64,000 bases of DNA, from the NCBI GenBank assembly GCA_046351395.1, contig JAXLYP010000017.1, forward strand, positions 1,508 to 65,507, in the 5' to 3' direction. This document shows, piece after piece, positions 51,382 to 64,000 of this stretch (positions are counted from its first letter, which is position 1; every line of letters begins with the position of its first letter). Position numbers and translations under genes: made by a program. The notes under the pieces are model-generated. The model did no database searches, was not told where the DNA came from, and saw nothing but the letters and a program-made list of their open reading frames with translations. Source of the stretch: Polyangiaceae bacterium. GTDB lineage: Bacteria; Myxococcota_A; Polyangia; Polyangiales; Polyangiaceae.

Positions 51382-53400
51382 TCAATCCGGGAATCGGGCG
51401 GCCGATGCGGCCTCGGCGACGCGATCGATCCACTCGCCCTCCGCGCGGCCGATCGGTGGGTTTCGATCGATGGCGGCGGGCAGCGCGCGGGCCTCGAGCC
51501 CGTTCCGATGCACCCGGATGAACGCGTCACGCACCTCGCCGACGCGGCCGTTCATCCCGTGGAAGAGCGCGTAGAGATCCGGGCCGACGGCGCGGCGCGG
51601 CCCTGGCCGCACCGTGAGCGTGTCGCCCGATCGAAGCTTCGCGACGAACCCGGCGACCTGGTGGTCGGGCGGATCCTCGTAGCTGTCGAGGCCCGATACA
51701 CCGCCCCGCGCGAGGAATGCGCCGAGCGTCTCGCTGCGATCCAGGTCTCGCACCCGGAGCGAGAGCCCGCGCGCGAGCGCCGCGTCTTCGATGGAGCCGA
51801 GCGTCGCCGTCCCGAGCGCGTGTGCGAGCAGCGATTCGTCGTCGAACGTCGTCTCGCGGGGCGCGGGCGCCGCCGCGAGCCTGCGCGGCGGCTCGCGCGG
51901 CACGAGGTTCCCCGGGTTCATGACGCCCGCGGGGTCGAGCACCCGCTGCATCGCGTGGACGATCGGCACGCCCAGGCCGAGCTCCACGCCCATGCGGGGC
52001 GCTTTGCTCCGGCCCACGCCATGGTGGTGCGAGAGCGTCCCTCCGCTCGCGAGGACGGCGTCCATCGCGTCCGCCCAGACCGCGTCGTACTTCGCCTCGG
52101 CCTCCTCGCGCGTCGGCGCGCTCCCGGCGAACGTGAAGTAGATGCTGCACCCGTCCGGGTAAGCGTGAGAGAAGTGCGCCATCACGAAGACGTGGCGCTT
52201 CATCGCGCGCCGAACCGCCTCGTACATCCCCTCGAGCTTCGACCACGGCGCCGCGACCTCCATCGTGTCGCTGAAGGCGCCGCTCATGAACACGGGCGCC
52301 TGCCGGTAGCTCACCGAGTAGCGGTGCTCGAACCAATGCTTCGCGGGGCTCTCCCCGAGATCCTCTCCGCGGTGGCGCTCCGCGACGAGGCGCGCGCGCG
52401 AGAGATCCGCTCGCCCTTGCTCACGCGTGCCCTCGAACACGAGGACGAGCGTCGTGCCGCCGAAGAGCCGATCGCCGCCGCGCTCCACGACCTCGTTGTG
52501 GACGCTCGGCGCGCGCAGCAGCGTGCGGAGCGCGAGCTGCTTCGCGTCGGCGGCGAACCCGCTGCGGCGCTTCGACGCGGGATCCGCCCGCTTCTCCTTC
52601 GACCCGGTGACGCGGCCGCGCTTCGCCATCCACGAGTCGAACGGATCGTAGAGCCGGGAGACCGCGGGTCGGAGGCCCGATTGGAAGAGGTCTCGGATCG
52701 CGTCGCACCCCGCGCGCACCGTCGGGAACGAGAAAGCGACGAACGTCCGGCTCTCCGGCGCGGCGTGGATGCGGAGGCGAGCCGCCGTGATCACGCCCAA
52801 GATCCCCTCGCTCCCCGTGAGGATGGGCGTGAGATCCGGCCCCGAGAGGCGGCGCTTGAAGCGGACGATCTCGCCTCGCCCGACGACGCACTCGAGATCC
52901 ACGACCATGTCCTCGATCTTCCCGTAGAGGCCCGAGCACTGGCCCGCGCTGCGCGCGGCGACCCAGCCGCCGACGGTGGAGCACAGGATGGACGAGGGGA
53001 AGTGTCCGAGCGTGTGTCCGCGCGCGACGAGATCCTCCTCGAGGCGGATGCCGTTCGCGCCGGCCTCCACGTCGAGCACGTCCCCCTCGATGGCGCGGAT
53101 CGCCTCGAGCTTCTTGAGGTCGAGCACGACGGTGCGCGGATCCGGCAGCGTGCCGCCGCACACTCCCGACCCAGCGCCGAAGGGCGCGACGGAGAAGCCC
53201 TCGCGCGCGCACACGCCGACGATCGCGGCGACGTCCTCGGTCGTCCGGGGCCACACGACGAGCGCGGGCTTGTGCTCCGCGATCGCTCCATCGCGCACCG
53301 CGATGTGGTGCCTCGGCCACAGATCGCGCGCGTACGTGACCCGATCGATCTCTCGGGTGCTCGTCTGAAACCCGGCGAACGCGGACTCGATCCCGCTCAC
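51382..53400 (-). CDS. FAD-linked oxidase (GlcD / D-lactate dehydrogenase / alkyl-DHAP synthase superfamily) with about 200-aa C-terminal extension
   Basis: GTG 53400 overlaps the TGA stop of the upstream methyltransferase (ACGTGAGCGGG). FAD_binding_4 features (PALVVWPRTTEDVAAIVGVCAREGFSVAPFGAGSG, GANGIRLEEDLVARGHTLGHFPSS). C-terminal FAD-oxidase_C region (SHHHGVGRSKAPRM). 673 aa. Confidence 0.75.
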   Translation of the reverse strand: MSGIESAFAGFQTSTREIDRVTYARDLWPRHHIAVRDGAIAEHKPALVVWPRTTEDVAAIVGVCAREGFSVAPFGAGSGVCGGTLPDPRTVVLDLKKLEAIRAIEGDVLDVEAGANGIRLEEDLVARGHTLGHFPSSILCSTVGGWVAARSAGQCSGLYGKIEDMVVDLECVVGRGEIVRFKRRLSGPDLTPILTGSEGILGVITAARLRIHAAPESRTFVAFSFPTVRAGCDAIRDLFQSGLRPAVSRLYDPFDSWMAKRGRVTGSKEKRADPASKRRSGFAADAKQLALRTLLRAPSVHNEVVERGGDRLFGGTTLVLVFEGTREQGRADLSRARLVAERHRGEDLGESPAKHWFEHRYSVSYRQAPVFMSGAFSDTMEVAAPWSKLEGMYEAVRRAMKRHVFVMAHFSHAYPDGCSIYFTFAGSAPTREEAEAKYDAVWADAMDAVLASGGTLSHHHGVGRSKAPRMGVELGLGVPIVHAMQRVLDPAGVMNPGNLVPREPPRRLAAAPAPRETTFDDESLLAHALGTATLGSIEDAALARGLSLRVRDLDRSETLGAFLARGGVSGLDSYEDPPDHQVAGFVAKLRSGDTLTVRPGPRRAVGPDLYALFHGMNGRVGEVRDAFIRVHRNGLEARALPAAIDRNPPIGRAEGEWIDRVAEAASAARFPD

Positions 53401-55469
53401 GTCCGCTCGGCCAGGATGATCAGGCGCGGCGACTCGGTGCCGAAGAAGATGCCCGGGTGCGCGACGAGCCCCGTGACCTCGACGACGCGGAACCCGACCT
53501 CGCGCAGCATTCGGCCGAGCGCATCGAGCGAGTAGAGGCGCAGCGAATACTCGACCTCGCGGGAGTGACCGTCCTCGAACATCGCCGTGCGCTTCACCTT
53601 CAACCGGCTCGTGAGGAAGTCGACCTGCATCTCGTCCATGCAAGTGCAGCGATCCCCCTCGAACCATACGAGGCTCGGGGATCGCGGCGCGATGTAGTCG
53701 CGGTTCGCGACGTCGATCAGCAGGTTGCCGCCTTGCCGGAGCGCGCGGTGGAGCCGCTTGAGGACGGCGAGGTTCACATCGTCCTCGAAGTACCCGAAGC
53801 TCGTCGCCCAGCAGTACGCGCCGTCGAAGTTCTCTTCGAAGTTCAGCTCGCGCATGTCGGACCGCATGAAGCTCGGCTTCGCCTCCATCGCGCCTTCGAG
53901 CGCGCGCACGCGGAGGTTCTCGTGGGCCAACGCGAGGGCCACGGGCGACAGATCCAGCCCGACGACGTTGTAGCCCCGGCTCGCGAGCTCGATCGCCATC
54001 TCGCCCCGACCGCACGCGAGGTCCAGGATCACGCCCTGCTTCTCGACGCCCAGACTCTCTTCGACGAAATCGACCTCGCGCCGCACGTGCTCGTCCGGCA
54101 GGACGTCCATCGTCTTGATGTAGTCCTCGGAGAACAAATCCTCGAACCAAGGCTTCTGCTTCTTCGTCGCGATCTCGAGCGTCTCGGGGACGGCCTCTCT
54201 CGCCTTGCCCTCGCGGCCTTTGGGCGGTGGCGGCGGCGGCTTCTTCGCGGGGATCGGGACCGCGTCCGGCTCGATGTCTTCGAGGAGCTCCTGCGCGCCC
54301 TCGTCGCTCTCCGTGATCTGCAGGGCGGGCGCCTCCTCGACCACGACGTCCACCACGGGGTGCGCCTTTGCGGCCTCGGGCGCAGCCTCGAACTGCGGCA
54401 CCGCGGGCGCGCGCAACACCTCGGGCGGCGCCGGCGTCCAGCCCTCCTCGGGGATCGCGGGGGGGAGGAGATCGGTCTTCGTGGCGGAGGGGACGAACCT
54501 CCGCACGGTCTCCGCCTCCGCGCTGTCCGGGCCCGGTCCGCTCGACGGTGCCGACTGGGGCGGAACCTGCTGGCCGTAGGGCGTGTACACCCCCACGGAC
54601 GAGGCCGACGGCCACTCCGCGATCGCGCTCGTGATGGGCGGTGGCGGCTCCGACCCGACGTTGATGATGCGCATCGGCCGGAGCACACCGTCGTCCGGCG
54701 GGGCCGCTGCGATGCGGGGCTCGAGCACGTCGGTCGTGTCGTTGAGCTGCATCGGCACGATCCCCGGCTCCGCGTTGAACGGGAGCGCCGCGGGGTGCGC
54801 GCCCGTCTCCGCGAGATCGGAGTACGTGTCGCCCCCTTCCATCGGGTAGGCGGCGGGCGGGACTGGCGGCGGATCGAGCGGCTGCGTCGTCGAGCCGGCG
54901 CGCCGGGCCTCGGCGGTCTGCGGTGGCGGCGCGACGGGCGCCGTCTCGGCGCGGGTGATGACCTGCGGCAAGTTGCGGCGCTCGACGGGATCGTCAGGGA
55001 TCTTGACGGTTCGCCGGGAGCTCCGTTTCCGGCCGGTGTCGCGCAGCGCATCCTTCGGGGGTTCCGCCGCAGCGGGCTGCGTGAGCGCGGGAACGCGGGG
55101 GGCGGGGGGAATGATCGGCGTCGGTCCGCCGCCAGCGGGGCGGGACGAGCGCTGGCGCGGCAGCTGCGCGCGCGGGTCGTAGTCCACCGTCGGGGACTCA
55201 TCCACGCCGTCCTCGTCGGGATCGAGCACCATCGTCCGCTCGGGGTCGAACGCCTCGCCGCCGGCCGCTGCGGCCGCCTTGTTCGACGCGATCACGGCCT
55301 GGATCTCGTCCGCGGTCATGCGCGTCGTGGATCGGAACTGGCGGGCTCCCATCGGTCCTCCGTCGCCGACGGCGTCCCGAATCGTGGGCTCGGGCGGGGG
55401 CACGGACCGCGGGCGCTGGGGGACGGGGGGCGGCATCGACTTCGGTCGGGCGTTTTGCTCGTCGCTCAT
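53397..55469 (-). CDS. Class I SAM-dependent methyltransferase with about 390-aa Pro-rich disordered N-terminal region
   Basis: The C-terminal 250 aa carry methyltransferase motif I (VILDLACGRGEMAIELASRGYNVVGLDLS) and post-I/II motifs. The N-terminal region is Pro/Ala/Glu-rich (MPPPVPQRPRSVPPPEP...KKPPPPPPKGREG). Its ATG overlaps the psd stop. The antisense ORF is junk. Confidence 0.75.
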   Translation of the reverse strand: MSDEQNARPKSMPPPVPQRPRSVPPPEPTIRDAVGDGGPMGARQFRSTTRMTADEIQAVIASNKAAAAAGGEAFDPERTMVLDPDEDGVDESPTVDYDPRAQLPRQRSSRPAGGGPTPIIPPAPRVPALTQPAAAEPPKDALRDTGRKRSSRRTVKIPDDPVERRNLPQVITRAETAPVAPPPQTAEARRAGSTTQPLDPPPVPPAAYPMEGGDTYSDLAETGAHPAALPFNAEPGIVPMQLNDTTDVLEPRIAAAPPDDGVLRPMRIINVGSEPPPPITSAIAEWPSASSVGVYTPYGQQVPPQSAPSSGPGPDSAEAETVRRFVPSATKTDLLPPAIPEEGWTPAPPEVLRAPAVPQFEAAPEAAKAHPVVDVVVEEAPALQITESDEGAQELLEDIEPDAVPIPAKKPPPPPPKGREGKAREAVPETLEIATKKQKPWFEDLFSEDYIKTMDVLPDEHVRREVDFVEESLGVEKQGVILDLACGRGEMAIELASRGYNVVGLDLSPVALALAHENLRVRALEGAMEAKPSFMRSDMRELNFEENFDGAYCWATSFGYFEDDVNLAVLKRLHRALRQGGNLLIDVANRDYIAPRSPSLVWFEGDRCTCMDEMQVDFLTSRLKVKRTAMFEDGHSREVEYSLRLYSLDALGRMLREVGFRVVEVTGLVAHPGIFFGTESPRLIILAERT

Positions 55470-56314
55470 CCGGCACTCCCCCGCGCTGCATCGTTCAGGG
55501 GCTCGCCGAGGCGGATGGGCCCGAGCTCTCGATGGAGCGACGGCACGCTCGGCTCCGTGAACACGACCGCGGTCGAGCCGAGGTGGAACACCCCGATCTC
55601 GCCAGCGCGCTCGACCTGGTAGGCCGGCTCGAGGGTGTGCGTGCCGATCTCGACGTCGTGGTGATCGAGCATGGGCACGGTGATGCGGCCGACGATCATC
55701 GCCCCCACCATGACCACCGTCACCCGGCCGTGCGTCGGTGAGTCGATGGGGATCGCGACGCGCCGGTTGATCGAGAAGAGCGAGCGCACGTGGCGCTCGC
55801 CGATCGCGTTCACCGGGAACAGATCCCCGGGCATCGAGCGAATCGCGCGGACCTCGCCGCCGACGGGCGCGTGCACGCGGTGGTAGTCCCGGGGGGACAG
55901 GTAGATCACGGCGAAGCTTCCGCCCTCGTACCGCGTCGCCTCGTGGGTGCTGCCGAGCAGCTCGTCGGCGCGGTAGTCGCGCCCCTTGATCTGGAACCGC
56001 CCGCTCGACGTGATCGGGCCGATCGCCTCGAGCCGCCCGTCCGCGGGGCTCACGACCGTCTCGCTCGGCGCGTGAATCGCGCGCGCACCCTCGCGGAGCC
56101 GACGCGTGAAGAACGCGTCGAAGCTCTCGAAGCCTCCCTCGGGGTGGATCGCCTCATCGAGGTCCACGGAGTACGCGCGCGAGAAGATCCCGACGACGGC
56201 CGACGACACGGACGCGGAGATCGCCGCGTCCGCCAAGCGACCGACCGCGCGCGTGATCCTCACGCGAGGTAATACGCGAAGGAGCTGCGCCGCAGCGAAG
56301 GTGGCCACGCTCAT
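55466..56314 (-). CDS. psd: Phosphatidylserine decarboxylase proenzyme
   Basis: 282 aa. Psd self-cleavage motif FHLGSTAVVF (LGST). Conserved YLSPRDYHRVHAP and FPVNA motifs. Confidence 0.85.
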   Translation of the reverse strand: MSVATFAAAQLLRVLPRVRITRAVGRLADAAISASVSSAVVGIFSRAYSVDLDEAIHPEGGFESFDAFFTRRLREGARAIHAPSETVVSPADGRLEAIGPITSSGRFQIKGRDYRADELLGSTHEATRYEGGSFAVIYLSPRDYHRVHAPVGGEVRAIRSMPGDLFPVNAIGERHVRSLFSINRRVAIPIDSPTHGRVTVVMVGAMIVGRITVPMLDHHDVEIGTHTLEPAYQVERAGEIGVFHLGSTAVVFTEPSVPSLHRELGPIRLGEPLNDAARGSAG

Positions 56315-56468
56315 CTGGTTACGCGGCTCATCCGGTTGCGCACGTCCCGCCGGCGGGGCGGATCCGATTCATGAGCGGCGGAAAGTCGAGTGCGGCTCCC
56401 ACGATCGCCCTCATGCTAGGCGCCCCCGTTCCGCGTTGTCTACTCCCCTCACGCGCGGCAGAGCTCGC

Positions 56469-58022
56469 TCAACGCCCTGCCCGCGGCCTCGCGCGGGCGG
56501 CTTCACACAGCGCTCGCCGGTCGGGATCGGCGGGGGATGCCGCGCCATCGAGCGTGCCGCAAGCCACCAGCGGGTCCAGGGGATCGAGCCCGAGCGCCGC
56601 GTTCGAGGCCGCCTCCGTCTCCTTGGGGATGAGGATCGCGCGGAGGGCCCACCAGCTCGCGTCGTTCGCGTAGACGTCCGCGGGATCGGCGACGAGCGCC
56701 GCCGCCGCCGGCTCGTCCCCGAGCCGGGCGAGCGTCTCCGCGAAGCGGGCGCGGATCACCGCCTCGCGCGGCGCGAGCCCCTCGGCCGCCTGAAGCTCCT
56801 TCCGGGCGGCGAGCAGGTCGACCCCGCGCAAGGTCGGATCGGCCTCCTTCCGGTTGGCGAAGAGCTCGCCGAGCCGAACGCGCTTTCGGGTCTCGCCGAG
56901 CGTCTTTGGAGGATCCGCGTTCGGGCGAACCTCGTCCGGGAGAACCTCGGCGCTCGCCATGACCGCCTTCTCCCAGCGCTCCTTCCAGGACGCGAACGAG
57001 CCGCCGCTCACCTGCTCGATCGCCGCGTTCACGCTCTGCTCCCCGCCCTTCAGCGCGCCGAGCAGCTTGGGGAGCGCGCCCGCGCCCGCCTCCCGGATGT
57101 AGAACCGCATGAAGCTCTGCACCTTGCCGTAGGTGACCTGGGCCTCGGTCGCGCTCGAGAGCATCGCGATGGAGGGGCCGATCTCGTCGATCTCCGGGCC
57201 GATGTGCTGGTTGATGCCGAGCGCGCTCAGGCCGTCGCACGACGGGACGTTGTCGAACGGTCGCGCCGGGCGCCAGCGCGACTCTTCGATCCGCGCGACG
57301 CCCTCCTGCAACCAGAGCGGGGCCCGGTCGGCGGACGCCCGCGTCTGGGCGAGGTGCGAGAGCTCGTGGGCGAGCGTGTCGAGGTACGAATAGCCGCGGG
57401 GCGCCGCGCGCGGGGACACCATGATGACCCGCCCCCACTTCGCGATCGCGACCGTCCCCGTGGTCCGCGCGGCGGTCACGGGGAGCCCCGTCATCGCGCT
57501 GAGCGCGTACTGATCACGCACCAGCTCGATGCGGATGGGCGAGGGGAGGAGCGTGCCGAGGTCGTCCTTGAAGACCTCGCGGGCGCGCGCGGCGACCTCG
57601 AACATGAACGGCGCGAGGACCTGATCCCCGTCGTCCTGGAAGCGGATCCACACGCCGCGCGCGGAGTCTTCGACCGTGACGGCGCCCACCGTGGAGCGGA
57701 CGCAGCCGCGCGCCACGGCGCCGAGCTCCTTGGTCTCCTCCGCGTCGACGAGCGGCGGGCGGGAGAGCAGGCCCGCGGCGAGCTCGCAGTCGCCCGCGTA
57801 GAGGGCGCGGCGCGCGCGCTCCACGGCGAGCCGTGCGTCCGACGGATCCGCCCCCTCGAGGGTGGACTTCGCGGCGTCGAGATCGAGTTCGAAGATCGCC
57901 TCGCGGGCCTTCGTGGCGCGCGCCTCATCGCCCGCGAGATCCGCCGTCGCGGTGAGCGCGACGGCCGCGCACGCGAGCGCGGCCCCCGCCGCGACGAGCG
58001 TCGAGAAGGCTCGGCGCCTCAT
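56469..58022 (-). CDS. Secreted zinc-metallopeptidase-like protein (gluzincin-type HExxH...E motif)
   Basis: ATG 58022 gives MRRRAFSTLVAAGAALACAAVALTATA (signal peptide). HELSHLAQ, and a Glu 16-18 residues after it (LWLQEGVARIEE). TPR-like helical N- and C-terminal regions. The start overlaps the stop of the 1057-aa gene. The rest of the 1592-aa ORF upstream is junk. Confidence 0.6.
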   Translation of the reverse strand: MRRRAFSTLVAAGAALACAAVALTATADLAGDEARATKAREAIFELDLDAAKSTLEGADPSDARLAVERARRALYAGDCELAAGLLSRPPLVDAEETKELGAVARGCVRSTVGAVTVEDSARGVWIRFQDDGDQVLAPFMFEVAARAREVFKDDLGTLLPSPIRIELVRDQYALSAMTGLPVTAARTTGTVAIAKWGRVIMVSPRAAPRGYSYLDTLAHELSHLAQTRASADRAPLWLQEGVARIEESRWRPARPFDNVPSCDGLSALGINQHIGPEIDEIGPSIAMLSSATEAQVTYGKVQSFMRFYIREAGAGALPKLLGALKGGEQSVNAAIEQVSGGSFASWKERWEKAVMASAEVLPDEVRPNADPPKTLGETRKRVRLGELFANRKEADPTLRGVDLLAARKELQAAEGLAPREAVIRARFAETLARLGDEPAAAALVADPADVYANDASWWALRAILIPKETEAASNAALGLDPLDPLVACGTLDGAASPADPDRRALCEAARARPRAGR

Positions 58023-61000
58023 CGGACGAGGCCCTCCGCGTAGCGCTTGATCGCCTCTCTCAGCCGAGGGTCTTGCGGCATGGAGAGGCCGTCCGTCACC
58101 CGCTTCTGAAAGTCCTCGGGTGCCTTGGGCTTGTCCTTGTCGGGGACCTTCGTGTCCCCGCTGATCGCGCGCTTGCCCTTGTCTCCGCTCTCGCCGCCGT
58201 CGTTCTCGTTCTCGTCGTCGTCCTGGCCCTTCGCCATCTCGAGGAGCCGCTGCGCCTGCTTCTCGAGCTCCTTGCCGTGATCGGCTTCGCCCTGCTCGAG
58301 CGACCTCTGCGCCTCGCGCATCGCCTCCTCGGCCTGCTCGAGCTTCTCGATCTGCTCCTCGCTGAGCGGCGCGTTGCTCTTCTCCCCCTTCTCTCGGAGC
58401 TGCTTCGCGCGCTCGCCCATGCGGCCCTCCTCGGCGCCGATGTCCTCGAGGTCCTGCTTCGCGCGCTCCTGCTGCTGCCGGCGCATGCGCTCGACCTCGT
58501 CGCGCATGCGGTCGAGCGCCTCCTGGATGCGGTTGCCGGACCGCGTCGCGTCCTTCGCGAGCTCCTGTTCGTCCGTGAACTCGGAGGCGCGGCCGCGCTC
58601 CGCCGCGTCTCGCAGCGCGCGGAGCGCCTCCTCGCCGCGCTTCAGCGCCTCGTCGACGTCGCCCTGTTCGAGCGCGCCGGCCATCGCCTCCGCGTGCTTG
58701 CGCCCGTCGGACGCTCGACCGCTCGGCGACCCCGGGGTCCCTTGGCTGGGGAGGCCCTTGACCGCGTCTCGGATCGCGTCCGCCTCTTCCTTCGCGAGCT
58801 TCTTCAGCGCGTCGAGCTCCTCGGGGGTCGTCGCCTTGCGCATCGCGTCCTCGACCTTGCCGATCTGCTGCGCGTGCTTCTTGATGAGGTCGTCGAGCTC
58901 GTCCGCCCTCTCTTGGGCCTCGCTCGCGGCGTCGGACGCCTCGCCCTCGTCCGAGCCGCCGCCGCCCCCGCTCGAAGGCGCGCCCCCGGACTCGACGCCG
59001 GGCCGGCCGCCGCCGCCGAGGCTCGCGTCGGCGTGGCGCAGTCGCTCGGCGAGATCGCGCGCGGCGATCTCCGTGCGCACCATGTCGAGCTCCGCGCGGG
59101 GTCGCCGGATCCGACCCATCCCGGCGCGCACGGCGTCCCCGAGATCGAGCCCGAGGTCGCCGATCTTGAGGAGCTCGGCGCCGCCGCCCTCGAGCACGTG
59201 GAGCGCGGCGTCGAGCCTCATCCCCGCCGACTCGCGATCGGCGTCCCGATCGAACCCGCGCGCGAGGTTCGCCGCGTCGTCGGCGACGAGCGCGAGCTTC
59301 TTCGCGACCTTCGCTGCATCGGTGAACCCTTGCGAGCGGATCATCGCGTCCACCGCGAGCAGCGCGTCCTCGCTCACCGTGACGAGGCTCGCGTACGTGC
59401 CGACGTCCGGCTTCTTCCCGGTCGCGCCGTGGCGGAGCTCCGCGAGCGCGCCGTCCAGCTTGTGGAGCTGCCCGGCGATCACCGTGCGGATGCGCCCGCG
59501 GATCGTGAGGCCGCCATACGACTCGGCGAGGCGATCCTCGATCAACGTCTCTTGGGCGCGCTGGGCCTTCGCCTCCTCCTCGGCGACCGCTTCGATGTTC
59601 TTGTCCGTCACGGCCGGCAGCGCGGGCGCCGAGGCGCCGGGCGCGGTCTCGCCACGTGCGACGCGCGGCGCCGTGAGGTCGACGAGGGCGTCCCGGATCT
59701 GGAGGAGCGCCGCGAACCGAAGCGCCTCGGGCTCGCCGACGTTCGGGGGCACGACCACGATCGCGGCCGACTTGCCCCACTTCGGTCCGGTCACCGCGTC
59801 GTTGTCGCGCACCTCGATCGTGACCTCGACGGGGAAGAAGCTCTGCTTGAAGAACGGGTCCTTCGTCGAGAGCTCCTCGCCGCCGGCGGCCGTCTTCGAG
59901 TCCGCGGCCTGCCGGGAGAGCGATCGCCTCTCCACCGTCGCGCCGGCGCGGAGCACGAGCGCGACCTCGCGGATGCCATGGTCGTCGGTCGCGCTGTACT
60001 TCAGGTGAATCGAAGGGGTGTCCATGAGCCGCACGGTGCGCGGCGCGCCCTCGAGCCGAACGACGGGGACCTCGTCCGGGATGGAGGTGATCTCGAGCGT
60101 GTCCGCTTGCGGGATGCGCCGCGCGCACCCGCGGCCCGCGCCGTCCGCCGACGCGGAGCCGGGCGGCTCGGGCGCTTGACCGAAGCACGCGGCGACGTGG
60201 AGCTTCGTGGAGTCGCCGAGCGTCCACTTCGCGATCAGGAGGCCGCCGCTCCCTTCGCCCGCGGAGCCCTCGACGACGAACGGCTCTTCGCGCACCCCAT
60301 CCGTCAGCACGAGGGAGCGACCTTTCCGCAGCGCTCGTCCGCGCACCGCGATGACGGATCCGCGCGGGGCGCTCATGCGGCCGAACCGGTCGATCGGCTT
60401 CTCGCTGTCCTGAAGGTACGCGGGAGGCGTGGAGACGATGTCGACGTCGTCGAGGTAGAAGAGGGAGAACGGGGCCTCGCGCTCCGTGCTCGCGAGCAGG
60501 TTCGCCCCCTCGACGATGCGCATGGGCTCGAGCATGACCGCCCCGAACAGCGCTCCCGTCACGCCGAGCGCGGCGACCGCCAGGTAGAGGCCGCGGCGAG
60601 CGGAGCGGGCCTCGACGTCGTCGAGGGAGATCTTCCGGAGCTGGCGCGCGAGGTGGAGCTCCGAGAGCATCTGCGTCGCGCGCGCGTCTCGCGGAGCGTC
60701 GCCCTCCGAGGCGCTCGCGCGCTCGGCGGAGTCGGCAAGCCGAAGCGCCCGATCGATCGCCGCGGCGAGCGACGGATCGGCCTGCTTCACGGTGCGATGG
60801 ATGGCGCGCCGCACGTCCCGCCAAGCGAACAGGCGCACGAGGGAGAAGATCCCCGCGCCCAGCATGGCGGCGACGAGCAGCGCGTACGCGGCGATCGTAG
60901 CGGCGCGCGTCGCCGTCGTCGCCGCGATCGCCGCGCCCGCGACGGCCGAGAGAGACAGCGACGAGACGAGCGCGATACGCGCCGCGCCCGTGCCCTTCGC

Positions 61001-61192
61001 GGACGCGCGGCGCAGCCGATCCCGTGCGCGCCGCATCATCCCCGCGGGGGTCAACGGCGCGGGCTTCGGCGGGTCTCCGCTGTCCGCTGGCGGTGCCGTC
61101 GTGGAGGGCTCCTCGAACGTGGGTGCGTCGTCCGAGGTCTCCGGCGGCTCGGAAGGCGCTCCTTCGAGGGGCGGCTCCTCCTTCGTGCTCAT
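58019..61192 (-). CDS. Large membrane-anchored protein (1057 aa) with two N-terminal TM helices and a long charged coiled-coil C-terminus (hypothetical)
   Basis: Acidic/Pro-rich first 60 aa, then TM helices (IALVSSLSLSAVAGAAIAA; AAYALLVAAMLGAGIFSLVRLFAW), a roughly 650-aa domain, and a roughly 250-aa Glu/Lys/Arg-rich coiled coil (EEQIEKLEQAEEAMREAQRSLEQGEADHGKELEKQAQRLLEMAKG). 4-nt start/stop overlaps with both neighbouring genes. Confidence 0.6.
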   Translation of the reverse strand: MSTKEEPPLEGAPSEPPETSDDAPTFEEPSTTAPPADSGDPPKPAPLTPAGMMRRARDRLRRASAKGTGAARIALVSSLSLSAVAGAAIAATTATRAATIAAYALLVAAMLGAGIFSLVRLFAWRDVRRAIHRTVKQADPSLAAAIDRALRLADSAERASASEGDAPRDARATQMLSELHLARQLRKISLDDVEARSARRGLYLAVAALGVTGALFGAVMLEPMRIVEGANLLASTEREAPFSLFYLDDVDIVSTPPAYLQDSEKPIDRFGRMSAPRGSVIAVRGRALRKGRSLVLTDGVREEPFVVEGSAGEGSGGLLIAKWTLGDSTKLHVAACFGQAPEPPGSASADGAGRGCARRIPQADTLEITSIPDEVPVVRLEGAPRTVRLMDTPSIHLKYSATDDHGIREVALVLRAGATVERRSLSRQAADSKTAAGGEELSTKDPFFKQSFFPVEVTIEVRDNDAVTGPKWGKSAAIVVVPPNVGEPEALRFAALLQIRDALVDLTAPRVARGETAPGASAPALPAVTDKNIEAVAEEEAKAQRAQETLIEDRLAESYGGLTIRGRIRTVIAGQLHKLDGALAELRHGATGKKPDVGTYASLVTVSEDALLAVDAMIRSQGFTDAAKVAKKLALVADDAANLARGFDRDADRESAGMRLDAALHVLEGGGAELLKIGDLGLDLGDAVRAGMGRIRRPRAELDMVRTEIAARDLAERLRHADASLGGGGRPGVESGGAPSSGGGGGSDEGEASDAASEAQERADELDDLIKKHAQQIGKVEDAMRKATTPEELDALKKLAKEEADAIRDAVKGLPSQGTPGSPSGRASDGRKHAEAMAGALEQGDVDEALKRGEEALRALRDAAERGRASEFTDEQELAKDATRSGNRIQEALDRMRDEVERMRRQQQERAKQDLEDIGAEEGRMGERAKQLREKGEKSNAPLSEEQIEKLEQAEEAMREAQRSLEQGEADHGKELEKQAQRLLEMAKGQDDDENENDGGESGDKGKRAISGDTKVPDKDKPKAPEDFQKRVTDGLSMPQDPRLREAIKRYAEGLVR

Positions 61193-62382
61193 GCCGCTCT
61201 CGTACGGGGGCGCGTGGTCCCTCGGACCAGCTCGCGAACGGCCTCACCGAGCCCGTCGAGCGTCAGGTCGAACATCGGGAACACCTGCGCGATCGGATCG
61301 ATCGTCGTCCCTCGGTAACTCTTCCAGTTCTCGGGGTTGAGCCACACCGCGCGGTGGAAGTGATCGCGCAGCATCTTGAGCCACGCGAGCCCGGGTACGC
61401 GCCCGTCGTCGCCGACGCCGGTCGACCCCATGAGCTCGTACGGCGCCATCAGGGCGTCCCCCACCATCACGAGCTTGTAGCCGCTGTGGCACTCCGCGAT
61501 CACGTCGCGCACGCTGACGGGCTCGAGGAAGTTCTCCGTCTTGTAGACGCGACCGTAGACGCAGTTGTGGAAGTAGTACGTGCGGATCTCGCGGAAATGC
61601 GTGGCGCGCTTCGCCGCGCTGAAGAGCTGGCTCATGGTGACCGCGTAGGGGTCCATGGAGCCTCCCACGTCCATCATGAGGATGACGCGCGTCGCGGGCC
61701 TGCGCGGCGGGCGCGTCTTCACCTCGAGCTCTCCGGCGTTGCGCGCGGTCGCGTCGATCGTCCCCTCGACGTCGAGCTCCTCGGCCTGGCCGTCGTAGGA
61801 GAAGACGCGCAGGCGCCGGAGCGCGACCTCGATCTGGCGCGTGTCGAGCACCACGTCCGTCCGGTACGGCTTGTACTTGCGCGCGTCCGCCGAGACGATC
61901 GCGCTGCGCCCGCCGCCGCTCGCCCCGCCGAAGGAGACGCCGCTCGGGTTGAACCCATCGCGACCGAACGGTGAGGTCCCTCCCGTCCCGACGAACCGGT
62001 TCCCGCCGTCGTGTCGCTCCTTCTGCTCCTTGAGGCGCTCCTCGAGGAGCTTCATCACCTCGTCGAGCTCGAGCGCCTGGATGGCCTTCTTCTCGTCGTC
62101 CGAGAGGTCCCGCATCTTGATCGGGTTCGACAGCCACTCGAGAAGTTCCTCGGCGATCGCCTTCGCCTCGATCGCGACCCCCTTGAAGTGGGACGCGAAC
62201 ACGAGGTCGAAGTCGTCGAGGTGCTTCTCGTGGTGGACGAGGAGCGCGCGCGAGACGTCGTAGAAGCCCTCGAGCGAGCTCTCGTGGAGTCCGAGCGCGA
62301 GCGCTCGCGCGAGCGCGACGGCCTCCTGCGCTCCCACCGGCACCTTCCGAGCGCGGAGCTCGTAGAGGAATTCGACGAACAC
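61189..62382 (-). CDS. VWA domain protein of the CoxE-like family
   Basis: GTG 62382 lies 7 nt after the stop of the upstream lipoprotein. N-terminus FVEFLYELRARKVPVGAQEAVALARAL is typical of CoxE-family proteins. VWA region ATRVILMMDVGGSMDPY (the MIDAS-like motif DxGGS rather than DxSGS) and the C-terminal YKLVMVGDA. 397 aa. Confidence 0.7.
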   Translation of the reverse strand: MFVEFLYELRARKVPVGAQEAVALARALALGLHESSLEGFYDVSRALLVHHEKHLDDFDLVFASHFKGVAIEAKAIAEELLEWLSNPIKMRDLSDDEKKAIQALELDEVMKLLEERLKEQKERHDGGNRFVGTGGTSPFGRDGFNPSGVSFGGASGGGRSAIVSADARKYKPYRTDVVLDTRQIEVALRRLRVFSYDGQAEELDVEGTIDATARNAGELEVKTRPPRRPATRVILMMDVGGSMDPYAVTMSQLFSAAKRATHFREIRTYYFHNCVYGRVYKTENFLEPVSVRDVIAECHSGYKLVMVGDALMAPYELMGSTGVGDDGRVPGLAWLKMLRDHFHRAVWLNPENWKSYRGTTIDPIAQVFPMFDLTLDGLGEAVRELVRGTTRPRTRAA

Positions 62383-62387
62383 GGCGG

Positions 62388-63014
62388 TCAGTGGACCATC
62401 ACGAGGGGAGCCTGGCCACGTTCGATCGCGGCCTGCCACTCCTCGGCGGTCCTCGGGATGGCTCCCTGCAGCCGGAGGCGTTCGAACGCCGCCTTCGCTT
62501 GCTCGTCGGTCATCTCGGAGATGCGCGCGTGGTACGCCCACCCGGCGTCGGGCATGCGACACATGACGCACGCCTCGGTCGCGATCATCTCGTCCCCGAC
62601 GACGCACGCGGAGGCGGCCTCGGGGCCGTACGAACCCTCCTGCGCGTGCGAGAGCGAGACGAGCTTGCACGGAGGCTCGGCGTGGAGCGGGTGGTTCGAG
62701 AACTCGACCGCCACGCGGCCTTGCGTGCCGCAGGCGGCCCCTTCATCCCTGAGGTTCTGGCAGGGGCCATCGAACACGGCTGCGTTCGAAGCGGTCGCGC
62801 TCGAGAGGCGGAAACCCGTGGACGTCTTGGCGCGCGGGTCCTCGTTGCGCCGAACGGGATGCGCGGTCGATCCCTCCGAAGATGAGCCAGAGCCGGGATC
62901 CGAGCCGGGATCGACGATCGCGACGGTGGGGGGCTCCGCCGTCGACGAACAACCGACGGAAGCCACCGCCGACCAACCGGCGAAGACGAGGAGGAGCGGA
63001 GCGCGAGACGCCAT
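62388..63014 (-). CDS. Lipoprotein (hypothetical), first gene of the VWA cluster
   Basis: MASRAPLLLVFAGWSAVASVGCSS (lipobox), then an acidic Ser/Gly linker, then a Cys-containing domain (GPCQNLRDEGAACGTQG...EPPCKLVS...ASACVVGDEMIATEACVMCRMPDAGWAYH). Confidence 0.55.
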   Translation of the reverse strand: MASRAPLLLVFAGWSAVASVGCSSTAEPPTVAIVDPGSDPGSGSSSEGSTAHPVRRNEDPRAKTSTGFRLSSATASNAAVFDGPCQNLRDEGAACGTQGRVAVEFSNHPLHAEPPCKLVSLSHAQEGSYGPEAASACVVGDEMIATEACVMCRMPDAGWAYHARISEMTDEQAKAAFERLRLQGAIPRTAEEWQAAIERGQAPLVMVH

Positions 63015-63037: not shown

Positions 63038-63784
63038 CTACCGATGCCCGTTCACGCACGGGTTCATCGGATCGTCGTCCTCCACGCACGGCGCGGTGGG
63101 GGGCGGCGGCGTGACGACGGGCGGAGGTCGGACACCCCCCGGCTGCCCGCCGGCGCCGGGCTTCGACGTCGGCTTCTCGGGGGTGCTCGGCGGCTGCGCG
63201 GGGGCGTTGGCCGCCGCGGCGGCGAGCTCGTCGGCCCGCCGCTCCGCCTCCGCGAGGAGGGCAGACCGGGCCTTCATCTCCGCGTCGAGGCGAGCGTTCT
63301 CGCGCCGCGTCTCCTCCGCCTGCGCCTCGAGCCGCTGCTGGGCGGCGATCGCGTCCGGCCGAATCTTTCCGAAATAGAGTCCGACGCCGCCCGCGAGGAG
63401 CATCGCCGCACCGACCGAGAGCCCCACGACCGCGCGTCGGAGCCTCGAGCGCGACTCCTTCGCGCGGATCTCCGCGACGACGCGCTCGTGATCTTGAACG
63501 AGCTTGAGCTCCTTGAGGCGCGCGTCCGCGAGCGCGCTTTGGCGGGCCTGCTCGACGAGCGCCTCCGCTCGCGCGCGCGCCAGGGCTTCCGCCTCTCGCT
63601 CGGCGCGCGCGGCCGCCCTTCGGCGCTCCTCCGCGGCGGCGAGCTCCGCGCGCTCCTTTTCGAGCGCAGCTTCGCGCGCGATCGCGGCCGACGCGCGCCG
63701 CTCGGCCTCGCGCTTCGCGAGCGCCTGCTGCTCCTCTTCGACGCGCTGCTCTTCGATGGACATCAGCTCCTTGAGCGTGAACAT
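63038..63784 (-). CDS. Coiled-coil membrane protein with Pro-rich C-terminus (hypothetical)
   Basis: ATG 63784 (MFTLKELMSIEEQRVEEEQQALAKREAERRA...). About 150 aa of Ala/Glu/Arg-rich coiled coil, a TM helix AVVGLSVGAAMLLAGGVGLYF, a second coiled coil, then PAQPPSTPEKPTSKPGAGGQPGGVRPPPVVTPPPPTAPC. Confidence 0.45.
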   Translation of the reverse strand: MFTLKELMSIEEQRVEEEQQALAKREAERRASAAIAREAALEKERAELAAAEERRRAAARAEREAEALARARAEALVEQARQSALADARLKELKLVQDHERVVAEIRAKESRSRLRRAVVGLSVGAAMLLAGGVGLYFGKIRPDAIAAQQRLEAQAEETRRENARLDAEMKARSALLAEAERRADELAAAAANAPAQPPSTPEKPTSKPGAGGQPGGVRPPPVVTPPPPTAPCVEDDDPMNPCVNGHR

Positions 63785-64000
63785 CGCGGAGCTCTGGTTC
63801 GTGGACGGGGATCGGGACGAGACGGGAGACGTAGTGGTTGGAGAGCGACCCATTGCAAGAGGAAAGACACGCCCTCGCGCGCCGCATTGGGTGTCTCGCG
63901 AAGCTCCCGCGCGGTTTCACGCGCAGCGATAGCGCGCGAGCGCGAGGCGTGCGCGCGTCCGCGAACGCTCGAGGGCCATCCGACGAGCGGAGCGCGAACG

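Follow-up and report, generated by a model that had tools for sequence, protein, structure and literature searches.

The window analysed herein, a stretch of 64,000 nt from a Polyangiaceae contig, contains near its end a block of four co-directional genes, all on the minus strand as the first-pass annotation had described. In order of transcription they encode a lipoprotein, a VWA protein, a large membrane protein and a peptidase-like protein, with one further gene upstream and three downstream (Table 1). Both ATGA overlaps reported for the block, at 61189–61192 between the VWA and DUF4175 genes and at 58019–58022 between the DUF4175 and peptidase genes, are exact; the spacer between the lipoprotein and VWA genes, previously given as 7 nt, measures 5 nt (62383–62387). 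The GTG start of the VWA gene is backed by a database protein of the same length and 100 % identity (MFO0616211.1, P0001), which is also found on a 1.8 kb Logan contig. An assembly artefact at the junctions can be ruled out because the lipoprotein–VWA–DUF4175 order recurs in independent Logan and JGI assemblies. A terminator-like hairpin (63883–63866) lies just upstream of the 271 aa gene. Beyond the block, 154 nt separate the peptidase gene from that for phosphatidylserine decarboxylase, the methyltransferase start overlaps the stop of the phosphatidylserine decarboxylase (Psd) gene by 4 nt, and the FAD oxidase gene probably begins with a GTG at 53400, which overlaps the methyltransferase stop by a further 4 nt.

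Table 1. Genes of the block and its flanks, listed in the direction of transcription
Feature	Position	Strand	Basis
Charged coiled-coil protein, 271 aa, one TM helix (residues 140–162)	63038..63853	-	ORF list
Predicted lipoprotein, 208 aa, Cys-rich C-terminal domain	62388..63014	-	ORF; signal peptide, Cys at 22
CoxE-type VWA protein, 397 aa, GTG start	61189..62382	-	Pfam VWA_CoxE
DUF4175-family inner-membrane protein, 1057 aa	58019..61192	-	NCBI name, Pfam matches of orthologues
Exported MA-clan (gluzincin-type) metallopeptidase-like protein, C-terminal TPR, 517 aa	56469..58022	-	Profile matches of orthologues
Phosphatidylserine decarboxylase (Psd)	55466..56314	-	Pfam PS_Dcarbxylase, E = 1.4e-54
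Class I SAM methyltransferase, 690 aa, Pro-rich N-terminal extension of ~440 aa	53397..55469	-	Pfam Methyltransf_25/23/11
FAD-linked oxidase, ~672 aa	51382..53400	-	FAD_binding_4 and FAD-oxidase_C in L083 and L084 orthologues

The VWA protein matches the Pfam family VWA_CoxE (PF05762) over residues 186–273 with a score of 37.2 bits (cut-off 26.4, E = 2.8e-9), a domain carried by all of its listed homologues, and, possessing neither a TM helix nor a signal peptide, is predicted to be cytoplasmic. The MIDAS-like DVGGS motif noted at first reading is present as D238-V-G-G-S242, which departs from the canonical DxSxS pattern. Alignment of the window protein with 88 orthologues reveals D[VI]GGSM in all 89 sequences, MoxR-linked members included, and the motif is therefore a conserved variant of the family, not a sign of decay. 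The window protein also keeps every alignment column that is conserved in at least 97 % of sequences, whilst the N-terminal 60 residues stand out as strongly conserved across the orthologues; CoxE-type proteins are known to carry a four-helix N-terminal domain (PMC7159879). Values of dN/dS amongst relatives without a linked MoxR gene range from 0.08 to 0.17, indicative of purifying selection. The VWA family as a whole comprises at least 7,895 clusters.

The 1057 aa ORF is a single gene that does not split, with full-length homologues of 950–1050 aa, although its architecture differs from that first proposed. Rather than two TM helices, it displays three hydrophobic helices (residues 70–93, 98–121 and 201–224), and in place of a domain of about 650 aa followed by a coiled-coil of about 250 aa, an AlphaFold2 model (pLDDT 84.4) suggests an extracytoplasmic part of two beta-sandwich domains (247–481) succeeded by approximately 500 aa of helical bundles. 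A disordered, acidic N-terminus and a loop of about 80 aa are predicted to lie in the cytoplasm, exposing ~150 residues there. The protein is named DUF4175 by NCBI, and resembles that family (PF13779) in its N-terminal TM helices and in the low-complexity and charged helical stretches of a long extracytoplasmic region. It differs in scoring below the Pfam threshold (18.8 bits vs a cut-off of 27.3), in matching only positions 26–332 of the 825 in the profile, and in belonging to a Polyangiaceae subfamily that is always trailed by an MA-clan peptidase. The orthologues are more readily assigned, with 38 of 44 matching PF13779 at E ≤ 0.01 (best 8e-19), and the subfamily to which the window protein belongs numbers 300 clusters. 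No meaningful PDB match emerged when the 1057 aa sequence was searched, and the literature on DUF4175 yielded only an unrelated mention of AdvA in Acinetobacter.

For the 517 aa protein, the HELSH motif and downstream glutamate on which its classification as peptidase-like was based are present, with H219, E220, H223 and E240 invariant in 14 orthologues. Its own match to Peptidase_MA_2 (PF13485) falls below the cut-off (21.8 vs 32.4 bits); all 14 orthologues match this family at E ≤ 0.01 (best E = 2.2e-10), and nine of them also match TPR_19. A profile search of the PDB retrieved TPR proteins only, at profile positions 366–462, whilst the corresponding sequence search gave nothing meaningful and AlphaFold2, run on the single sequence, reached a pLDDT of 40.8, too low to be of use. 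Literature searches on Peptidase_MA_2 and on MadB with MoxR provided nothing useful. A signal-peptide-like segment spans residues 4–31. The N-terminus reads MRRRAFS, which is Tat-like; the orthologues do not possess the RR pair. In Escherichia coli, BepA is a periplasmic HExxH peptidase with TPR repeats (M48 plus TPR), and the 517 aa protein presumably resembles it in combining an exported zinc-peptidase-like domain with TPR repeats C-terminal to it. It differs from BepA in matching Peptidase_MA_2 instead of M48, in its additional N-terminal helical region and in its obligatory DUF4175 neighbour. By analogy, the TPR domain suggests a predicted protease that may find its substrates or partners in the envelope.

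The absence of a MoxR ATPase gene near the VWA gene, initially claimed for the surrounding 6 kb, holds for the entire window. No ORF of at least 120 aa within the 64 kb contains a GxxGxGK[ST] motif, and tblastn of the same stretch with six orthologous MoxR proteins gave a best E of 0.47. Nor does such a gene probably lie just beyond the window, as judged from two syntenic relatives (L086 and L085), where MoxR is absent for 1.5–4 kb past the equivalent point. Elsewhere in the Myxococcota a different arrangement prevails: of 84 orthologous loci, 67 have the gene for a MoxR ATPase of 279 aa, with the Walker A sequence GEPGTGKT, immediately upstream of that for VWA, and three more have it close by, though not adjoining. 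No neighbour family besides MoxR is common to more than 13 of the VWA loci. Close relatives at L003–L005, L084, L091 and L092 display the order MoxR–VWA–DUF4175–peptidase. Given that the ATPase gene precedes that for VWA in such a majority of loci, including those of relatives with the same downstream genes, a coxDE-type pair is the ancestral state.

In the window's own sublineage (L085, L086 and L088), the MoxR position is taken by the lipoprotein gene, together with the 271 aa gene in most members. Homologues of the lipoprotein are encoded directly upstream of VWA in L086 (51 %), L088–L090 (36 %) and L085 (30–40 %, frameshifted), and its family is small, with 99 representative clusters at E ≤ 1e-3 amongst 1.84 billion proteins. 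The lipoprotein is thus an addition specific to this sublineage (L085, L086 and L088–L090). Homologues of the 271 aa protein occur, in the same position, only in L086 (57 % identity) and L088, L089 and L090 (35–39 %), whilst L085 has the lipoprotein gene without its 271 aa companion. Neither protein has a match in Pfam or NCBIfam.

A search for a distal MoxR partner, as proposed at first reading, produced a candidate in the same submission, MFO0612909.1 (P0264), an intact protein sharing 82 % identity with the MoxR encoded next to VWA in L084. By accession number it is 3,301 away from the window DUF4175 protein (MFO0616210.1) and 3,302 away from the VWA protein. Within this submission batch adjacent genes are numbered adjacently, and other Polyangiaceae MAGs are 25,000–65,000 numbers away; MFO0612909.1 therefore probably belongs to the same MAG as the window, on another contig. 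One figure speaks against a split pair, in that the 82 % identity to the L084 MoxR is below expectation from the 80 % identity of the VWA proteins, with the L091 MoxR being 86 % identical by comparison. Separation of the two genes has precedent, as at least 10 further loci from Myxococcota have MoxR and VWA unlinked. Amongst the top 120 MoxR matches, Sorangium and Chondromyces proteins are present and none is from Polyangium, and therefore some genomes may keep VWA without a cognate ATPase.

The remaining genes of the block form a pair of their own. In 69 of 70 loci the peptidase gene immediately follows DUF4175, and in most DUF4175 loci the Psd–methyltransferase–FAD oxidase string, Psd first, comes next. 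By comparison, only 3 of 48 DUF4175-anchored loci have VWA upstream, and 3 of 67 VWA-anchored ones have DUF4175 downstream; in other genomes the position upstream of DUF4175 is held by Ddl, a Ser/Thr kinase or an Fe-S/CCG protein. In Polyangium mundeleinium, the MoxR/VWA and DUF4175 units are ~11 Mb apart on one contig. The idea of a single VWA-centred four-gene module doing without MoxR is accordingly not supported, as the partner of VWA is MoxR in 67 of the 84 loci and DUF4175–peptidase is a separate pair. From the suggestion of an envelope-associated system, what survives is that the 1057 aa and peptidase-like proteins are predicted envelope proteins; that such a system is centred on VWA is not supported. 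A general tie of DUF4175 to MoxR–DUF58-type operons was also considered and was rejected on 80 metagenome loci.

The block is probably best explained as two independent units juxtaposed by a change of gene order in one Polyangiaceae lineage, such that a split CoxD/CoxE-like pair now sits beside an envelope pair. The first unit would be the VWA half of a Myxococcota-wide pair of MoxR (CoxD-like, 279 aa) and VWA (CoxE-like, ~395 aa). The second would be an older pair of DUF4175 and an exported MA-clan zinc peptidase with TPR, typical of Polyangiaceae-type genomes and heading the Psd–methyltransferase–FAD oxidase string. In one subclade the MoxR–VWA pair seemingly landed directly upstream of DUF4175, with 4 nt overlaps, and in the sublineage of the window the lipoprotein gene, along with the 271 aa gene in most members, would then have displaced that for MoxR. 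The VWA protein would still serve as the cytoplasmic, client-binding adaptor of a MoxR hexamer encoded elsewhere, for which MFO0612909.1 is the candidate, pairing with it in trans and engaging a presumed client through its family-specific D-V-G-G-S MIDAS-like site, as in CoxD/E and NorQ/D. DUF4175 and the peptidase, for their part, may cooperate on the periplasmic side, where the membrane-anchored protein could serve the peptidase as a docking scaffold or as a regulator. Because the MoxR of this VWA protein adjoins it in most relatives, and is probably encoded elsewhere in the genome, the four-gene block is a gene-order variant and not a new system, both pairs belonging to families that are already annotated.

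Amongst characterized systems, the closest counterparts are the widespread CoxD–CoxE pairs (Kaur et al. 2020, PMC7159879), such as that of Oligotropha carboxidovorans. The window VWA protein passes the VWA_CoxE threshold, is CoxE-sized (~400 aa) and has neither a fused effector domain nor a third component, and in relatives its gene is preceded by one for a small, 279 aa MoxR, just as coxD precedes coxE. It departs from that model in that its ATPase gene is not adjacent, with none in 64 kb, and in that the whole myxobacterial family has the first MIDAS serine replaced (D-V-G-G-S). NorQ/NorD provides a mechanistic analogue of MoxR/VWA pairs (PMC9976466). No coxMSL or CODH subunit genes were seen beside VWA in the window, L002 or L083–L088, where the neighbours are envelope, lipid and regulatory genes, and no other obvious client genes were noted near the window VWA. 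The block is also distinct from operons of the Bat, or MoxR–DUF58–VWA, aerotolerance type, with no DUF58 or BatA/BatB-type membrane VWA protein amongst the window genes or the annotated relatives.

Of the other explanations, the one that fares best, although we deem it unlikely, is that the MoxR/VWA pair of this subclade is dedicated to DUF4175 and the peptidase. The VWA protein would bind the acidic N-terminus or the 80 aa loop of DUF4175, and the ATPase, in cis or in trans, would remodel DUF4175 and thereby control the peptidase across the inner membrane. The window, L084, L086 and L088 all keep the 4 nt overlaps at both junctions, and the ATGA coupling of VWA to DUF4175 persists across several species-level lineages, which is more than adjacency alone would call for and makes a functional link conceivable. 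Many contigs, judging by matching sizes, carry MoxR, VWA and DUF4175 together; DUF4175 does expose cytoplasmic residues, its acidic N-terminus included; and MoxR/VWA pairs elsewhere act on specific membrane complexes (PMC9976466, PMC7159879). Despite this, by far the most loci have one pair without the other, the DUF4175 subfamily, with its 300 clusters, is far narrower than the VWA family, and the ATPase gene has proved removable from the operon with all other genes staying. A more elaborate form, in which MoxR/VWA was recruited in the Polyangiaceae subclade to control a periplasmic TPR-metallopeptidase via three-TM DUF4175, genetically tied to phospholipid genes, with the ATPase acting in trans or dispensable in the window's sublineage and the lipoprotein and coiled-coil protein joining in, appears quite improbable.

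It is more doubtful still that VWA has become independent of any MoxR in this sublineage, working instead with the new lipoprotein and the 271 aa protein as an envelope-associated module. Such a change would be in keeping with the 271 aa gene–lipoprotein–VWA layout conserved in L086 and L088–L090, the strong purifying selection on VWA, the lack of MoxR throughout the 64 kb and the missing Polyangium proteins amongst the top MoxR matches. It is at odds, however, with the predicted extracytoplasmic location of the lipoprotein and most of the 271 aa protein, given a VWA protein without a signal peptide or TM helix, and with L085, which has the first but not the second of the two newcomers. The VWA protein moreover retains all family-conserved residues, with no sign of functional change, and an intact MoxR orthologue is probably present in the same MAG.

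An anti-phage or conflict system, whether of the MoxR–vWA ternary type or another defence module, is largely refuted: beyond the hint in the first-pass annotation and a general richness of myxobacteria in such systems (PMC7159879), nothing speaks for it. The ternary systems have in common with the present genes a MoxR–vWA core that derives from CoxD–CoxE-like pairs (PMC7159879). None of the five window proteins, however, matched PADLOC above noise, no VMAP, iSTAND or other third NTPase component is present, the 397 aa VWA protein carries no effector domain, and the genes are highly conserved and sit amongst stable neighbours of housekeeping type (Psd, methyltransferase, Ddl), not in a variable island.

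A VWA system operating without MoxR would have been unusual; the evidence favours an ordinary CoxD/E-like pair whose genes are unlinked, and the practical value of the finding is therefore modest. It does illustrate how little the lack of a partner gene in the neighbourhood says about whether the genome encodes one. The MoxR/VWA pair occurs in nearly all Myxococcota, its two genes have come apart repeatedly, and no client is known for it. DUF4175 and the MA-peptidase/TPR protein, meanwhile, constitute a strictly conserved envelope pair beside phospholipid-synthesis genes, and hence offer a testable context for two uncharacterized families.

The block forms a co-directional run of minus-strand genes (region G+C ~71 %), listed in the table below. 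Both ATGA overlaps, joining the VWA, DUF4175 and HExxH-protein genes, lie precisely where the first-pass annotation located them, whilst the lipoprotein–VWA spacer measures 5 nt rather than the claimed 7 nt. Further 4-nt overlaps link Psd to the methyltransferase (55466-55469) and the latter to the oxidase (53397-53400), with a gap of 154 nt separating the HExxH-protein gene from Psd. NCBI entries MFO0616211.1 (VWA) and MFO0616210.1 (1057 aa) match the window's proteins at 100 % identity; both come from a 246,456-bp contig of a Polyangiaceae MAG. A terminator-like hairpin sits immediately upstream of the 271-aa gene (63866-63883, minus strand), and the sole sigma-70-like match in the region occupies the gap before Psd (56413-56442, minus strand); both are consensus matches only, which hint that each end of the five-gene block marks a transcription-unit boundary. 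A 1592-aa ORF (56469-61247, minus strand), being the peptidase frame run upstream across the DUF4175 gene, was rejected as a shadow ORF, as were many long antisense ORFs in the window, which are usual for DNA of 71 % G+C.

Genes of the block and its downstream neighbours
Product	Coordinates	Strand
271-aa charged protein, one TM helix	63038-63853	-
208-aa lipoprotein	62388-63014	-
397-aa VWA protein, GTG start	61189-62382	-
1057-aa membrane protein (DUF4175)	58019-61192	-
517-aa exported HExxH protein	56469-58022	-
Phosphatidylserine decarboxylase (Psd)	55466-56314	-
Methyltransferase	53397-55469	-
FAD-linked oxidase	51382-53400	-

The VWA protein clears the Pfam VWA_CoxE threshold. Around its orthologs, 80 genomic loci were fetched from across Myxococcota; of 84 loci compared, 67 have a gene for a 279-aa AAA+ protein of MoxR type (Walker A, GEPGTGKT) immediately upstream of VWA and co-directional with it, and three more have one nearby. 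Apart from MoxR, each neighbouring family is common to no more than 13 loci, and the VWA gene is therefore half of a CoxD/CoxE-like MoxR/VWA pair that is complete in itself; such pairs are reported to be widespread (Kaur et al., PMC7159879). The DVGGS motif is indeed present, but is not peculiar to this gene, since each of the 89 sequences aligned (the window VWA and 88 orthologs) has D[VI]GGSM, MoxR-linked ones included. All alignment columns conserved in at least 97 % of sequences are retained, and dN/dS values of 0.08–0.17 within the window's sublineage indicate that the gene is still functional. Amongst the homologs, database protein P0003 (4,617-bp JGI contig; 651 aa) carries an internal tandem duplication of ~250 residues, spanning the helical linker to the VWA core, which could be real or an assembly artefact. 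Five MoxR–VWA loci with VWA proteins 45–58 % identical to the window's are labelled Actinomycetes, Comamonas, Burkholderiales, Nanopelagicales and Dehalococcoidia (L042, L052, L053, L070 and L080), which could reflect mis-binning, mislabelling or horizontal transfer.

With regard to the adjoining genes, the 1057-aa protein itself falls under the DUF4175 threshold; 38 of 44 orthologs match (best E = 8e-19), and it is probably a divergent member. A confident AlphaFold2 model (pLDDT 84.4), together with a hydropathy scan, predicts a disordered acidic N-terminus, then three TM helices that enclose a ~80-aa cytoplasmic loop, a pair of beta-sandwich domains (247-481) and helical bundles totalling ~500 aa; when this model was used for fold searches, the matches were all of generic Ig-like or four-helix-bundle type. 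Homology places the 517-aa protein in the Peptidase_MA_2 superfamily, a match made by each of 14 orthologs, and its C-terminal part has TPR repeats; H219, E220, H223 and E240 are invariant. Its N-terminus (57932-58022) carries a signal peptide starting MRRRAFSTL, which is twin-arginine-like; as most orthologs show KR or just one R at this position, Sec export is more likely.

In 80 metagenome loci fetched with the DUF4175 alignment, the peptidase gene directly follows DUF4175 in 69 of the 70 with enough downstream sequence, usually succeeded by Psd and the methyltransferase. The DUF4175/MA-peptidase-TPR/Psd/methyltransferase/FAD-linked oxidase string (window 51382-61192, minus strand; relative loci L083, L084 and L099-L169) is deeply conserved, with DUF4175 identity down to 33 %, and suggests a tie between the envelope pair and phospholipid metabolism. 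The methyltransferase (53397-55469) has a Pro/Ala-rich, probably disordered N-terminal extension of ~440 aa before its class I SAM-methyltransferase domain (residues ~450-665), an architecture shared by orthologs of 580-780 aa.

DUF4175 and the peptidase lie downstream of VWA only in the closest Polyangiaceae relatives, where L003-5, L084, L091 and L092 show the order MoxR-VWA-DUF4175-peptidase-Psd-methyltransferase-FAD oxidase, with the same 4-nt overlaps in L084, where gene calls are available. Elsewhere, DUF4175 is preceded by Ddl, Ser/Thr kinase or Fe-S/CCG protein genes; VWA lies upstream of it in only 3 of 48 loci, and of 67 genome loci 3 have it downstream of VWA. Some 11 Mb separates the two units in Polyangium mundeleinium. 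These gene-order counts in both locus sets make the block a juxtaposition, in one subclade, of two conserved units that are independent of each other. The initial observation itself is borne out. The proposed new VWA-centred, MoxR-less envelope system is not upheld, given this synteny and the usual MoxR gene upstream of VWA; the block represents an altered gene order for a MoxR/VWA pair of known kind, beside an uncharacterised yet already annotated envelope pair.

The window layout recurs in three further assemblies. L086 (VWA 94 % identical) encodes a 264-aa lipoprotein, homologs of the 271-aa protein and of the lipoprotein, VWA, DUF4175 and peptidase; L088/L090 (84 %) share this core; and L085 (78–79 %) has a lipoprotein homolog upstream of VWA, with MoxR absent within 4.2 kb. 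Inheritance across several species-level lineages rules out misassembly. Homologs of the lipoprotein and 271-aa genes occur in none of the other ~160 loci, so one or two lineage-specific envelope genes have taken over the MoxR position. Neither protein has a family match, and the lipoprotein family comprises only 99 representative clusters amongst 1.84 billion proteins.

The reported lack of MoxR near the cluster extends to the full 64 kb: no ORF of at least 120 aa contains a GxxGxGK[ST] P-loop, and tblastn with orthologous MoxR proteins gave a best match of only E = 0.47. The 120 top-scoring relatives of the MoxR from L084 include P0264 (MFO0612909.1; 522,741-bp contig), named 'MoxR family ATPase [Polyangiaceae bacterium]', which is intact at 279 aa and 82 % identical to the L084 protein. 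Its accession lies 3,301 numbers from the window DUF4175 protein and 3,302 from the VWA. Adjacent genes receive adjacent accessions within a submission batch (MoxR MFO0547960.1, VWA MFO0547961.1), and other placeable Polyangiaceae MAGs are 25,000–65,000 numbers off; on this numbering, the 3,301-number gap is most likely spanned by a single MAG with several thousand proteins. Separation of the two genes is nothing unusual: the available upstream sequence (10 kb in most) lacks MoxR in ten other loci, Polyangium, Labilithrix and Sandaracinus among them. Polyangium VWA genes stand alone (L002, L008, L009), and Polyangium species are absent from the 120 MoxR relatives, where Sorangium and Chondromyces are present; the cognate MoxR may have been lost or strongly diverged there, with VWA kept intact. 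In NCBIfam, the MoxR partner (L084:9093-9932, P0264) is most similar to 'MadB family AAA-type ATPase', at 104 bits, far under the 475-bit cut-off; no literature tying the name MadB to MoxR was found.

The best-supported reading, which we consider moderately probable, is that VWA would still bind clients as the adaptor of a MoxR hexamer whose gene lies in trans, on the pattern of CoxD/E and NorQ/D (PMC7159879, PMC9976466), and that DUF4175 and the TPR-peptidase would form a pair of their own in the periplasm with an inner-membrane anchor. Conserved translational coupling would fit the main rival, recruitment of the MoxR/VWA pair, in this subclade, to act on the cytoplasmic segments of DUF4175, but the two pairs are independent in most genomes and we regard this as doubtful. 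That VWA acts independently of any ATPase is more improbable still. A defence role, in line with the conflict-system idea first raised, is unlikely, there being no PADLOC match, third component or effector domain. More useful as leads are the gene string that runs from DUF4175 through peptidase, Psd and methyltransferase to the oxidase, and the MoxR/VWA pair, which is nearly universal in myxobacteria.
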